The notes beneath the pieces are model-generated. The model did no database searches and was not told where the DNA came from. It saw only the letters and a list, made by a program, of their open reading frames with translations. A DNA stretch of 64,000 nucleotides from Bacilli bacterium (GTDB lineage Bacteria; Bacillota_I; Bacilli_A; RFN20; CAG-826), in NCBI GenBank assembly GCA_045601085.1, contig JAZRZD010000002.1, forward strand, positions 6,106 through 70,105, given 5' to 3'. Each line of letters begins with the position of its first letter. Positions within the stretch are counted from its first letter, which is position 1. The position numbers and the translations under genes were made by a program. Positions 6,577-9,045 of the stretch are shown here, one piece after another.

Positions 6577-8238
6577 CTATAAAGAGGCAATAACTTTATC
6601 TATTCTTTTATCACATCTATCCTTAGAAAGGACTTTCATGACGTAATATAAGTTAGGGGAATTCTTCTTACCAGTTAAGGTAATTCTAAGCATCTCTGCT
6701 ACATCAGAGACACTTCCAATATATTTGTCTGATTCAAGCTTATATTCTTTACCACTACCAGCGTAGCCTAAAGAAGAAGCAATTTCTTTTAAATTATTAA
6801 ACCAGGATTGTTCATCTTGATCTAATGATAAATTCTCTTTAACTTTTAAGAGAGTTTCTTTAATTATCTCTTTAGAGAATTTCTCATTATATGGTTCTTT
6901 AACTATAGAATCATATTTATCATCATAGAAGAATGAGATAGAAGACACTAAGTCAGAGAGTTTTTCATAATCTTTTCTTGGTTTTTCTTTCTCTCTTTCA
7001 ATATTCATAATATCCATAAAATAGTTTTCATCTCTAGAGATAAGTTCTTTAAGTTCTGGATCATATTCATTAGCGTAATTCTTAGCTAAATATAATATTT
7101 CATATTTAGTTTTTCTCGCTAATATCTCTTTTGAAAAGAATTTTAATTTACCAATATCAAATAATGCACCTTCTCTAGAGAACTTTTCAAAAGAGAAATT
7201 AAATTCTTCCATATGGGAGAAATTATGAGCAAATATCCATTCTTCAAAATTAGAATTAGCAATGGTATATAAATACATTATTAATGCTTCTGTTGGATAA
7301 CCATCTTTAAGGAAGTATGATACTGCTGCTTCATTATCTAACCTTTTAGATAATTTACGTTTATTACCAGTAGTATCATCTACTTTCATAATTACAGGTA
7401 GATGAGCGTAGTTAGGAAGTTTCCAACCTAAAGTAGTAAATAATTCTACATGGATTGGTAAAGATGATATCCATTCTTCTCCTCTTATAACAGTGTTAGT
7501 TCTCATAAAGTGATCATCTACTGCGTGCGCAAAGTGATAGGTTGGAAGACCATCACTTTTTAAGATAACGATATCTTGATCATTTTCCACTCCATCAAGA
7601 GTGCCTCTAATTAAATCATAGAACTTAACTTTTCTTATATGGTTACCACTACTTTTAAATCTAATAACGTATTTCTCACCATTTTTAATCTTTTCTGCTT
7701 TTTCATCATTATTTAAGAATCTACATTTAGCGAACACTCCATAATAACCAGGAATAATTTTATTAGCTTCTTGTTTGCTTCTTATATCATCAAGAGCTTC
7801 TTGAGAACAAAAACAAGGATAGGCTCTACCAATAGAGATTAAGTATTTAATACATACTTTATAGATATACGCTCTATGGGATTGTTGATATGGGCCATAG
7901 TTACCTTCTTCATGATCACCAAAATATCCCTCAAATGGAGCGATATTAAAAGTATGTAATTGATCAAGTAGTTGTTTACCACTACCTTCAATTTCTCTTT
8001 TAGTGTCTGTATCCTCTAATCTAACAAAGAATACACCACCAGTTTGACTTGCGAATTTATGACATATCATACTGGTAAACAAACTACCAGTATGTAAGAA
8101 ACCTGTAGGAGAAGGAGCAAACCTTGTAACCAAGGCACCTTCTTTAAGGTTTCTTGGAGGGTATTTCTTCTCAAGGTCATCAATAGTTTCTTTAATATCA
8201 GGGAATATAAGTTCTGCAAGTTCTTTATCTGTAATCAT
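6577..8238 (-). CDS. gltX: Glutamate--tRNA ligase
   Basis: TRFAPSPTGFLHTGS (HIGH-like) and KLSKR motifs. Confidence 0.95.
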   Translation of the reverse strand: MITDKELAELIFPDIKETIDDLEKKYPPRNLKEGALVTRFAPSPTGFLHTGSLFTSMICHKFASQTGGVFFVRLEDTDTKREIEGSGKQLLDQLHTFNIAPFEGYFGDHEEGNYGPYQQSHRAYIYKVCIKYLISIGRAYPCFCSQEALDDIRSKQEANKIIPGYYGVFAKCRFLNNDEKAEKIKNGEKYVIRFKSSGNHIRKVKFYDLIRGTLDGVENDQDIVILKSDGLPTYHFAHAVDDHFMRTNTVIRGEEWISSLPIHVELFTTLGWKLPNYAHLPVIMKVDDTTGNKRKLSKRLDNEAAVSYFLKDGYPTEALIMYLYTIANSNFEEWIFAHNFSHMEEFNFSFEKFSREGALFDIGKLKFFSKEILARKTKYEILYLAKNYANEYDPELKELISRDENYFMDIMNIEREKEKPRKDYEKLSDLVSSISFFYDDKYDSIVKEPYNEKFSKEIIKETLLKVKENLSLDQDEQSWFNNLKEIASSLGYAGSGKEYKLESDKYIGSVSDVAEMLRITLTGKKNSPNLYYVMKVLSKDRCDKRIDKVIASL

Positions 8239-8337
8239 AATAAAATCTCCGTTAGTAATTATATTTCATTATTCATATTATTTCATTTAAATAAATATGA
8301 TTTATCAAATGTAACAATAAGATTGCCATTAAAAGTG

Positions 8338-8365
8338 TTGATAATACATATAGTTGTGATAACAT
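8338..8365 (+). promoter_or_regulatory. sigmaA-type promoter of sRNA 1
   Basis: TTGATA-N16-TAACAT with TGn extension; same pattern recurs at 8790, 8925, 9377 and 9612. Confidence 0.65.
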
Positions 8366-8368
8366 AGA

Positions 8369-8430
8369 GGTATCAAGGATCTAGGTGACCTTAAAAAGAA
8401 AGAGAGTGGGGGCAAACCACTCTCTTTTTT
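8369..8430 (+). ncRNA. Putative antitoxin sRNA 1
   Basis: Promoter, about 30 nt body, terminator AAGAGAGTGG-loop-CCACTCTCTT-T run; 5' end complementary to 3' UTR of the antisense peptide mRNA. Confidence 0.6.
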
Positions 8431-8460
8431 CATTTACATCAGGTGCCAAGGATCTAGGTT

Positions 8461-8553
8461 TTAGTATTTAATTAAAACTACTAATACAATTAACAGTACT
8501 AATATAAATACCGTTGTAGAGAGAAACTCTTTAATAAGAATCTCTCCTTTCAT
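8461..8553 (-). CDS. Putative type I toxin peptide 1 (MKGEILIKEFLSTTVFILVLLIVLVVLIKY)
   Basis: 30-aa single-TM peptide translated by hand; paralogues at 9046 and 9426 keep the C-terminal frame. Confidence 0.65.
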   Translation of the reverse strand: MKGEILIKEFLSTTVFILVLLIVLVVLIKY

Positions 8554-8557
8554 AAAT

Positions 8558-8593
8558 CTAGATTACCATGGCGCCCGGTAATCTCTTTAGCAT
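8558..8593 (-). CDS. Leader uORF (MLKRLPGAMVI)
   Basis: GGAGG RBS 7 nt before ATG; stop 4 nt before toxin ATG; equivalent uORF in unit 2. Confidence 0.45.
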   Translation of the reverse strand: MLKRLPGAMVI

Positions 8594-8820
8594 CCTTGTG
8601 CCTCCTTTTTGTAAACTATCCGAATTACTCCGGCAAAACAAAAGTTAACATATATAAAATATTTAATCAAATACCCATATAGCGTTCCATATTATAAATA
8701 ATATAGTTACTTATATATAAACTAATAATATAGTATTTATTATTTAAATATGGAAAAATTTTATTAAAAAATTATTCCATAATAAAGTATTGATAATTAT
8801 AGGATAGATGATATTATAAA

Positions 8821-8880
8821 GATGCCAAAGTGCTAGAAAAAATTAAAGAAAAGAGAGGGGTTGCAGCCACTCTCTTTTTC
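8821..8880 (+). ncRNA. Putative orphan sRNA 2
   Basis: TTGATA-N16-TATTAT promoter (8790-8817), diverged 5' seed, same terminator family, no peptide gene opposite. Confidence 0.5.
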
Positions 8881-8955
8881 ATTATCTATTAATAATTCTA
8901 GAGAGTAGCACCACTCAAAAAGTATTGATAAATGGTACCACTATGATAATATATA

Positions 8956-9016
8956 GGTATCAAGGATCTAGACAATCTAAAAAAGAAAGAGAGTGGTTGC
9001 ACCCACTCTCTTTTTT
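8956..9016 (+). ncRNA. Putative antitoxin sRNA 3
   Basis: Promoter 8925-8952, GGTATCAAGGATCTAG 5' end, shared bidirectional terminator. Confidence 0.6.
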
Positions 9017-9045
9017 CATTTACATCTGGCGTCAAGAATCTAGAC

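Follow-up and report, generated by a model that had tools for sequence, protein, structure and literature searches.

A candidate type I toxin–antitoxin array in an uncultured Bacilli lineage, with a short reading frame in the toxin mRNA leader and predicted 5'–3' pairing

Parts of the array

The window analysed here is the whole of a 64,000-nucleotide (nt) stretch of contig JAZRZD010000002.1, which comes from one incomplete metagenome-assembled genome (MAG) of an uncultured, small-genome Bacilli lineage (0.79-Mb assembly, 75% complete, 32% G+C, standard genetic code). Between gltX (6577-8238, minus strand) and a tRNA-Gly gene (9773-9843, plus strand) lies a region, 8330-9710, that is free of long open reading frames (ORFs) and holds three related units on the minus strand, two of which (units 1 and 2) are intact. 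The order of parts in both intact units is promoter, 5' hairpin, a mini-ORF with the start signal GGAGG-N7-AUG, a hairpin that holds the Shine–Dalgarno (SD) sequence of the candidate toxin, a hydrophobic peptide ORF, a segment of the 3' untranslated region (UTR) that we call T, and a terminator. Opposite each of them, on the plus strand, is a convergent gene for a small RNA (sRNA) of ~65 nt, the two genes having a bidirectional terminator in common (Table 1). T is the common target of three strands: two sites in the leader of the candidate toxin messenger RNA (mRNA), called site i and site ii, and the 5' end (seed) of the sRNA.

The 5' end of the unit 1 mRNA was placed from a minus-strand TTGATT-17-TAACTT promoter with an extended -10 (TGT), and its 3' end from an intrinsic terminator (stem 8427-8399, followed by a U run). 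Unit 2 is preceded by a promoter of this sequence, again with an extended -10. The sRNA promoters (TTGATA-16-TAACAT or TAATAT, plus strand) share their architecture with the promoter of the toxin mRNA, and the sRNAs end at the terminator of the mRNA read in reverse. As is generic for type I systems, the predicted mRNA is short (~243 nt) and its hydrophobic peptide falls within 20–60 amino acids (aa), while each antisense RNA has a predicted promoter and terminator, with ~40 nt of overlap and an 18-nt seed. The 5'-terminal hairpin, whose paired bases are invariant between units 1 and 2, may protect the 5' end of the mRNA.

Each candidate toxin (30 aa in unit 1, 23 aa in unit 2) would form one hydrophobic helix, and the changes between the two peptide cores are conservative (mostly V/I/L swaps, with one V-to-A). 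The start codon of the unit 1 toxin is uncertain, as its AUG has no SD of its own. In the SD hairpin, 12 pairs compared between units comprise four compensatory changes, three one-sided changes and two lost pairs. The toxin SD has a probability of being unpaired of ~0.1 in the free mRNA, with T blocked, in a transcript truncated before T, and with a ribosome footprint at either the start or the stop of the mini-ORF; since it stays paired in all modelled states, its opening by sRNA binding or by mini-ORF translation is not predicted.

A first-pass annotation of the window had described an upstream ORF of 10–11 aa, led by GGAGG, in each mRNA. This is true of two of the three units, as unit 3 lacks the mini-ORF start (it reads AUA UAA). 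In units 1 and 2 the start signal is GGAGG-N7-AUG and the frames are 10–11 codons long. Genome-wide, an ATG follows 5–9 nt after 159 of 492 occurrences of GGAGG, and GGAGG-N7-AUG is the modal initiation signal; hence the mini-ORF is probably translated when its site is open. By our estimate, GGAGG and AUG at the optimal 7-nt spacing in both intact units has a chance of ~0.002 per leader. That the frame is open over ten codons is uninformative, the expectation by chance being ~40% (an estimate from base composition). The two mini-ORF peptides are unrelated, their frame being shifted by a 2-nt indel. In unit 1 the UAG stop of the mini-ORF lies 4 nt upstream of the toxin AUG. The stop in unit 2 lies 30 nt upstream of the UUG start, and the unit 2 codon aligned with the unit 1 toxin AUG is ACG, with an in-frame UAA after it. 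Reading TGA as Trp would place the unit 2 stop 3 nt before the UUG, and was rejected in favour of the standard code because translation table 4 lengthens ORFs by only 4% and table 11 gives the genome a coding share of 87%.

Table 1. Features of the array (transcript ends and structures are predicted; each coordinate is a position in the window)
Feature	Coordinates	Strand	Remarks
Unit 1 toxin mRNA, ~243 nt, ends inferred	8392-8634	-	promoter and intrinsic terminator
5'-terminal hairpin CCGGA-GUAA-UUCGG	8620-8633	-	-5.4 kcal/mol
Leader site i, GUUUACA...AGG..GC.CAAGGAU.CUA	8588-8616 (nt 19-47)	-	holds mini-ORF SD and AUG; 5' strand of fold A
Mini-ORF, unit 1, MLKRLPGAMVI and stop	8558-8593	-	GGAGG 8605-8601, AUG 8593-8591, UAG 8560-8558
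Local hairpin within mini-ORF, AGAUUACCG / UGGUAAUCU	8560-8584	-	-10.3 kcal/mol; unit 2 equivalent -11.9 kcal/mol
Leader site ii, mini-ORF end, CGGGCGCCAUGGUAAUCUAGAUU	8555-8577	-	5' strand of fold B
Toxin candidate ORF, unit 1, 30 aa, MKGEILIKEFLSTTVFILVLLIVLVVLIKY	8461-8553	-	AUG start
Hairpin burying toxin SD, GGAGAG...CUCUCU	8520-8547	-	12-13 bp; -13.4 kcal/mol
3' UTR segment T, CCUAGAUCCUUGGCACCUGAUGUAAAU	8432-8458	-	27 nt, just after peptide stop
Bidirectional intrinsic terminator	8399-8427	both	common to unit 1 mRNA and sRNA 1; terminator-like on either strand
sRNA 1, antitoxin candidate, ~65 nt	8369-8433	+	promoter 8338-8365
Unit 2 toxin mRNA	8980-9221	-	same parts as unit 1; sequence and folding
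Unit 2 GGAGG	9192-9188	-	
Mini-ORF, unit 2, MKRGHLLTSR	9180-9148	-	
Unit 2 local hairpin	9172-9145	-	
Unit 2 SD hairpin	9133-9103	-	
Unit 2 peptide ORF, 23 aa	9117-9046	-	UUG start
Unit 2 T	9045-9018	-	
Unit 2 terminator	9013-8986	-	
sRNA 3, cognate sRNA of unit 2	8956-9020	+	promoter 8925-8952
Unit 3, decayed copy	9375-9660	-	

Competing partners of the 3' segment

The first-pass annotation had proposed that the end of the mini-ORF is complementary to the segment after the peptide stop and covaries with it unit by unit. All the strings that it quoted are present on the minus strand (the unit 1 3' segment CCUAGAUCCUUGGCACC at 8458-8442, that of unit 2 from 9045), and both parts of the proposal are borne out: the bare duplex of site ii with T has an energy of -23.5 kcal/mol in unit 1 and -27.0 kcal/mol in unit 2, values reached by 2/2000 and 0/2000 dinucleotide shuffles of that part of the leader, and three of its pairs are changed on both sides between the units. 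A second leader site that pairs with T, site i (nt 19-47), is absent from that annotation. Its bare duplex is equal to that of site ii in unit 1 (-23.4 kcal/mol) and weaker in unit 2 (-17.9 kcal/mol). When the whole leader is shuffled, its pairing with T is matched 22 times in 2000 for unit 1 and once in 2000 for unit 2.

We call the pairing of site i with T fold A and that of the mini-ORF end (site ii) with T fold B. Folds were computed with the transcript ends given above unless these were varied, and all structures are predictions from two paralogous copies. The whole mRNAs have RNAfold z-scores of -5.3 (unit 1) and -5.4 (unit 2). Fold A has a pairing probability with T of 1.00 in unit 1 and 0.94–0.95 in unit 2, fold B of ~0 and at most 0.16. 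The local hairpin within the mini-ORF, which is mutually exclusive with pairing of site ii to T, has a probability of ~0.95–1.0. Forcing fold B costs 6.2 kcal/mol (unit 1) or 2.3 kcal/mol (unit 2) relative to fold A, which wins in the whole-mRNA folds because the body of the mini-ORF can then form its local hairpin of -10 to -12 kcal/mol. Folds A and B alike contain an outer helix, GUUUACA:UGUAAAU, that does not vary between the units. Blocking T removes ~15 kcal/mol of intramolecular structure, and the mRNA is thus predicted to be a closed ring. A long-range 5'–3' helix, which folding had been proposed to check, is accordingly predicted in both units; its favoured 5' strand is usually the SD/AUG region of the mini-ORF and not, as the first-pass annotation had it, the mini-ORF end.

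The choice between the two partners depends on what else occupies the leader. A modelled ribosome footprint on the SD/AUG site moves T to the mini-ORF end, and a footprint on the mini-ORF end moves it back; in unit 2, too, fold B is dominant when the footprint blocks the SD/AUG site. For every pair of transcript ends that was tried, fold B in unit 1 has a probability of at most 0.03.

Comparison of the two units bears on all of these helices. Of 22 pairs in fold A, 17 are unchanged, three carry compensatory changes and two are lost. Fold B, besides its three pairs changed on both sides (slid controls, 0), has four unpaired cells among 20 inner pairs. The local hairpin, in a hand alignment, has two compensatory changes, one one-sided change and no broken pair. 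Columns 191 and 196, both in T, have changed together with site i as well as with site ii, and for the local hairpin and for each long-range helix there is at least one compensatory change explained by that helix alone. Altogether, five helices keep their pairing despite a core divergence of 13–33%, with seven pairs changed on both sides as against 0–3 in slid controls. The RNAalifold consensus is a hybrid, in which T is divided: its distal part pairs with the SD/AUG site, its proximal CUAG part with the stop region of the mini-ORF.

The third partner of T is the sRNA. The 5' end of sRNA 1, GGTATCAAGGATCTAG at 8369-8384 on the plus strand, begins 4 nt past its TTGATA-16-TAACAT promoter, and its seed (8369-8386) is a DNA direct repeat of 8441-8458. 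Since the first 18 nt of the sRNA repeat the DNA from which T is transcribed, the sRNA and T are complementary there. Cognate duplexes of seed and T (-28.1 kcal/mol in unit 1, -26.9 kcal/mol in unit 2) are stronger than the crossed ones (-23.5 and -22.4 kcal/mol), and two compensatory changes are found at the unit-specific end (UAGGU:ACCUA in unit 1, UAGAC:GUCUA in unit 2); being palindromic, the CUAG core makes the complementarity look greater than it is. T is the best site for the seed on the mRNA, and the toxin initiation region contains no seed site. The first-pass annotation was therefore correct in that the sRNA 5' end targets the same 3' segment and mimics the leader strand: it has the same sense as the leader strands and is not complementary to them. 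Because it shares their sense, the seed must displace an intramolecular helix to bind T, as had been claimed, although the strand displaced would usually be site i and not the end of the upstream ORF. After opening costs, binding of the seed to T has a net gain of -6.9 and -8.3 kcal/mol. The minimum free energy (MFE) cofold of the two RNAs is a perfect intermolecular duplex of ~40 bp over the terminator overlap, with a gain of ~30–35 kcal/mol and the ring intact.

Two further sRNA genes of the same family, at 8822-8888 and 9645-9708 (both plus strand), are orphans with no toxin gene opposite; their seeds pair weakly with T of units 1 and 2 (about -7 to -17 kcal/mol). Behind the seeds of sRNA 1 and sRNA 5 is a GGUGACC motif (8384-8392, plus strand) whose complement, GGUCACC, occurs in the mini-ORF hairpin of unit 2, on its 5' arm (9165-9173, minus strand). 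The duplex of these regions, at -20.8 to -21.5 kcal/mol, could be a cross-unit contact at the leader.

Relatives, copies and genomic setting

We searched for relatives of the array at several levels. The RNAs stay below threshold for every Rfam family (for RatA, 22.9 bits where 49 are required, with the others nowhere near their cut-offs), and the peptides have no match in Pfam or NCBIfam. A phmmer search with the peptide against 1.84 billion representative proteins gave no match. The genus consists of one genome, and a BLAST search with the unit, covering 200 genomes of the family, recovered only the copies in its own genome; a peptide search of 200 family genomes gave only chance matches inside long ORFs. 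The leader pattern had no match in 185,579 species genomes, six in JGI metagenomes, all of them chance matches, and one among IMG/VR viral contigs, a chance match in a giant virus. A degenerate codon pattern for the peptide C-terminus had one chance match in the species genomes, inside an rRNA-methyltransferase-like gene, and none in the IMG/VR viral contigs, and plasmid and phage collections yielded nothing. Covariance models fared similarly: that of the sRNA found only generic terminators in 400 family genomes, with no small hydrophobic ORF nearby, and that of the whole mRNA found only terminator-sized matches in 400 order-level genomes, the best of which sits between two protein genes.

The nearest GltX relatives are at most 77% identical. 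Three relatives were examined, and none of the loci that reach upstream of gltX (L036 and L037) has an array there. The relative with a 72%-identical GltX has its tRNA-Gly ~100 nt upstream of gltX, and in L037 (4822-5001) the space upstream of gltX consists of tRNA-Gly and ~100 nt only. Hence, the ~1.4-kb array (within 8238-9773) is an insertion in the present lineage. The gene order in the relative is NUDIX, NERD, tRNA-Gly(GCC), gltX, and its 350-aa gene is absent from the locus studied here. When aragorn output was filtered for Trp, Gly, selenocysteine and suppressor tRNAs, tRNA-Gly(GCC) alone remained; that no tRNA-Trp was seen probably reflects the incompleteness of the assembly.

Divergence is unevenly spread along the two intact units. 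Identity is 95–100% between 8612-8770 and 9199-9358, which cover the 5' hairpin, the toxin promoter and ~140 nt of AT-rich spacer, and merely 67–87% between 8336-8611 and 8923-9198, the transcribed toxin/sRNA core. Either the spacer has been homogenised by gene conversion, or the interacting RNA parts have diverged faster, perhaps separating the two pairs. Unit 3 lacks T and the terminator as well as the mini-ORF start, and a 16-nt deletion has taken the 5' arm of its SD hairpin. A fifth promoter (9377-9404) runs directly into the antisense of the startless peptide 3.

Readings of the RNA circuit and comparison with known systems

We favour, with about even confidence, the reading that the locus is an orphan type I toxin–antitoxin module with a par-like layout, bsrG/SR4-like RNA logic and a ring-closed mRNA. 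What follows we infer as a mechanism, from the transcript ends and folds through toxicity and decay to the role of mini-ORF translation. T would pair with the leader and close the ~243-nt toxin mRNA into a ring, with the toxin SD locked in its own hairpin of 12–13 bp. The favoured partner of T would be site i, the pairing half-burying the initiation site of the mini-ORF, and T would move to site ii when site i is occupied. With the closing helix in place, the mRNA would be compact, probably stable and poorly translated, and the antitoxin site would be hidden. The ~65-nt sRNA would pair through the 40-nt terminator overlap and, by its 5' seed, with T. Seed pairing would displace the leader, long duplexes would be expected substrates for RNase III, and decay of the mRNA would be next; this outcome of sRNA binding is taken by analogy from bsrG/SR4 and RatA. 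Our best guess for the mini-ORF is that the ribosomes it loads stabilise the mRNA or act as a gate on it; reinitiation at the toxin AUG would be possible in unit 1 only. The sequences themselves, the complementarities, their excess over chance and the compensatory changes between units are direct observations, as is the presence of an rnc gene. A gene for RNase III (Pfam PF14622, 98.9 bits) is found at ~63064-63453 (minus strand), within the 64-kb window.

Several points weigh against this reading. There are two intact copies only, ~80% identical and from one genome, and, as no collection searched yielded homologues, a real covariation test lacks its sequences. Each helix has three compensatory changes, two of which are common to folds A and B, so that they are suggestive and not proof. 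Fold B becomes dominant in unit 2 when the 5' end is placed at least 14 nt further upstream or when the terminator is read through by 25 nt. The -10 of the toxin promoter (TAACTT) is weak by consensus and is missing from the promoter-scan list. Topology prevents a single complex from holding both the seed duplex and the terminator duplex in full, and binding of the seed alone would tend to leave the initiation site of the mini-ORF more exposed, an effect other than repression.

The first-pass annotation had pointed to hok/mok, and a circuit of that kind, in which fold B is the main structure, toxin translation depends on translation of the mini-ORF and the sRNA competes with fold B, remains an unlikely alternative. 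Translation of hok requires that of mok (PMC4147584), the GGAGG-N7-AUG signal is canonical in this genome, and the unit 1 stop is only 4 nt away from the toxin AUG downstream, which lacks an SD of its own. The corresponding distance of 30 nt in unit 2, the ACG and in-frame UAA at the aligned site, and the exclusion of TGA as Trp, which would have rescued coupling there, argue the other way, as does the footprint of a terminating ribosome, which leaves the SD hairpin closed. Coupling of mini-ORF to toxin is thus weakly supported, with a plausible geometry in unit 1 only; the canonical start signal and the unit 1 spacing fit the earlier proposal, whereas the unit 2 spacing, the unconserved mini-ORF peptide and the closed toxin SD do not. 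Fold B itself is strong as a duplex, beats shuffles, and has one compensatory change among its three (columns 81:178) that it alone explains; it is the MFE or dominant fold in unit 2 with longer 5' ends or 3' read-through, and is predicted whenever site i is occupied. Yet it lies 6.2 and 2.3 kcal/mol above fold A, is assigned the low probabilities given above, and excludes the local hairpin, which has a compensatory change of its own (A71 to G, U55 to C). Moreover, the sRNA does not pair with the initiation region of the mini-ORF, whereas Sok pairs at mok.

About equally improbable is that the mini-ORF has no coding or coupling role, its GGAGG serving as a stabiliser that binds ribosomes at the 5' end or simply as a piece of the closing helix, and that the sRNA is of the RatA type, acting by its ~40-nt terminator overlap only, with the pairing of seed and T an accessory or a remnant. 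RatA provides the precedent, as it works purely through 3' overlap and RNase III (PMC4147584), and the MFE cofold does use the terminator overlap alone and leaves fold A intact. Such a duplex would, however, have to be reached by melting terminator hairpins of -16 to -18 kcal/mol, which is kinetically hard, and in par the terminator loops serve only to nucleate binding by loop–loop initiation (PMC7472228). The seed and T, moreover, keep two compensatory changes and a preference for their cognate partner. As to the mini-ORF, the unrelated peptides, the frame-shifting indel and the ease with which ten codons stay open by chance count in favour of this alternative, but the estimate of ~0.002 per leader makes it unlikely that GGAGG and AUG stand at their spacing in both intact units by chance.

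A more elaborate version of the ring-closed module, which we consider somewhat less probable than either of these, would make the leader a pair of built-in decoys of the antitoxin seed, toggled by ribosomes. At rest, T would hide the start of the mini-ORF; an initiating ribosome would push T onto the mini-ORF end, and once the ribosome had reached that end T would snap back onto the start. One ribosome would be admitted at a time, the ring would stay closed and the antitoxin site would never be free. The sRNA would then be a third competitor, one whose binding would open the ring and also tag the mRNA for RNase III; without cleavage, it could even raise translation of the leader.

Least likely of all is that the complementarities are by-products of a short, partly palindromic repeated motif (AUCUAGAU core) spread by tandem duplication, without regulatory function and at a locus that may be decaying or no toxin–antitoxin system: unit 3 has decayed, two sRNAs are orphans, the family was found in no other genome or collection searched and the palindromic CUAG core inflates complementarity, but five helices have kept their pairing at 13–33% divergence (seven double changes against 0–3 in slid controls), shuffles rarely match the observed duplex energies and the peptide varies conservatively in its hydrophobic core.

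If the ring-closed module is real, several known type I systems have a part in common with it. In bsrG/SR4 of the Bacillus subtilis SPbeta prophage, the 5' end of the toxin mRNA pairs with a 3' segment by the terminator (helix P1; nt 1–35 with nt 232–262), and when SR4 binds, the 5' strand of bsrG is released, the SD helix grows longer and the mRNA is degraded in an RNase III-dependent manner (PMC3834814). The present locus has in common with it a toxin SD in a helix, a small hydrophobic peptide, a low-GC Gram-positive lineage, and a convergent antitoxin on the 3' region that is predicted to free the 5' strand and, by analogy, might bring about RNase III-dependent decay. SR4, however, is ~180 nt long and fully antisense over ~123 nt, including part of the ORF, whereas the overlap here is the terminator only (~40 nt) and stops short of the ORF, with T contacted by a seed that is a separate direct repeat. 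Descriptions of bsrG mention neither a mini-ORF in the leader nor an alternative second partner there, and the peptides are unrelated.

The gene layout is that of par (RNA I/RNA II, Fst) from Enterococcus faecalis pAD1, where convergent promoters lead to a common bidirectional terminator (PMC7472228), a DNA direct repeat read in opposite directions provides complementarity outside the overlap, the toxin SD is hidden by an intramolecular stem-loop and the 5' end is structurally protected. The repeats of par, DRa and DRb, cover the SD and start codon of the toxin, so that RNA II blocks translation directly; here a single repeat lies after the stop codon (8441-8458) and none over the initiation region. 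Unlike Fst, the candidate peptide has no PXXXG(C) motif or charged tail; it ends in ...VLIKY and has no Pfam match. In T1TAdb, with its 24 families, interaction outside the overlap is found only in Fst/RNAII and SprA1 (PMC8594479).

With hok/mok/Sok of plasmid R1 the locus would share a 5'–3' fold-back that hides an initiation site and the antisense target (PMC4147584, PMC9841398), and it has a leader ORF with its own SD ahead of the toxin ORF; pairing of the 3' end with the 5' end, as in hok-type mRNAs, is predicted for unit 1, for unit 2 and for their RNAalifold consensus. In contrast to mok, which overlaps hok, the mini-ORF ends before the toxin ORF (by 4 nt in unit 1, by 30 nt in unit 2). 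Sok has its gene in the leader and binds where mok is initiated, whereas the gene for the present sRNA lies at the 3' end and its product would bind the 3' strand of the fold-back. The hosts of hok/Sok are Gram-negative, and its peptide is unrelated. The toxin mRNAs of timP/TimR and AapA1/IsoA1 have mutually exclusive conformers or long-distance 5'–3' pairing, and in them, as may be the case here, alternative mRNA folds set toxin translation and antitoxin access (PMC11228461, PMC6733600, PMC5416894). Their architectures and binding sites are unlike those described here: the antitoxins pair at or near the 5' initiation region or with an activating structure, and not with a 3' UTR strand mimicked by the leader.

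The array thus looks like a new variant of RNA-controlled toxin–antitoxin systems, as judged from two copies and folding predictions; the weight to be placed on it is limited accordingly, this being an orphan family in one incomplete MAG, with two comparable copies and predicted structures. Should the folds be real, one small RNA would combine the par layout, a displaced closing helix of the bsrG/SR4 type and a leader mini-ORF of the hok/mok type, and would add a new twist, the mimicry of the antitoxin seed by two alternative strands of the leader. Such an RNA would serve as a compact model of an mRNA that protects its own antitoxin site, and its leader ORF would be a first among type I systems from Gram-positive-type lineages; a limited full-text literature search found none described for type I systems of Gram-positive bacteria. 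A ribosome-driven toggle has not been described for any type I toxin–antitoxin system. Of the systems compared, the RNA logic is closest to bsrG/SR4, with the hok fold-back next, and the gene layout is par-like.

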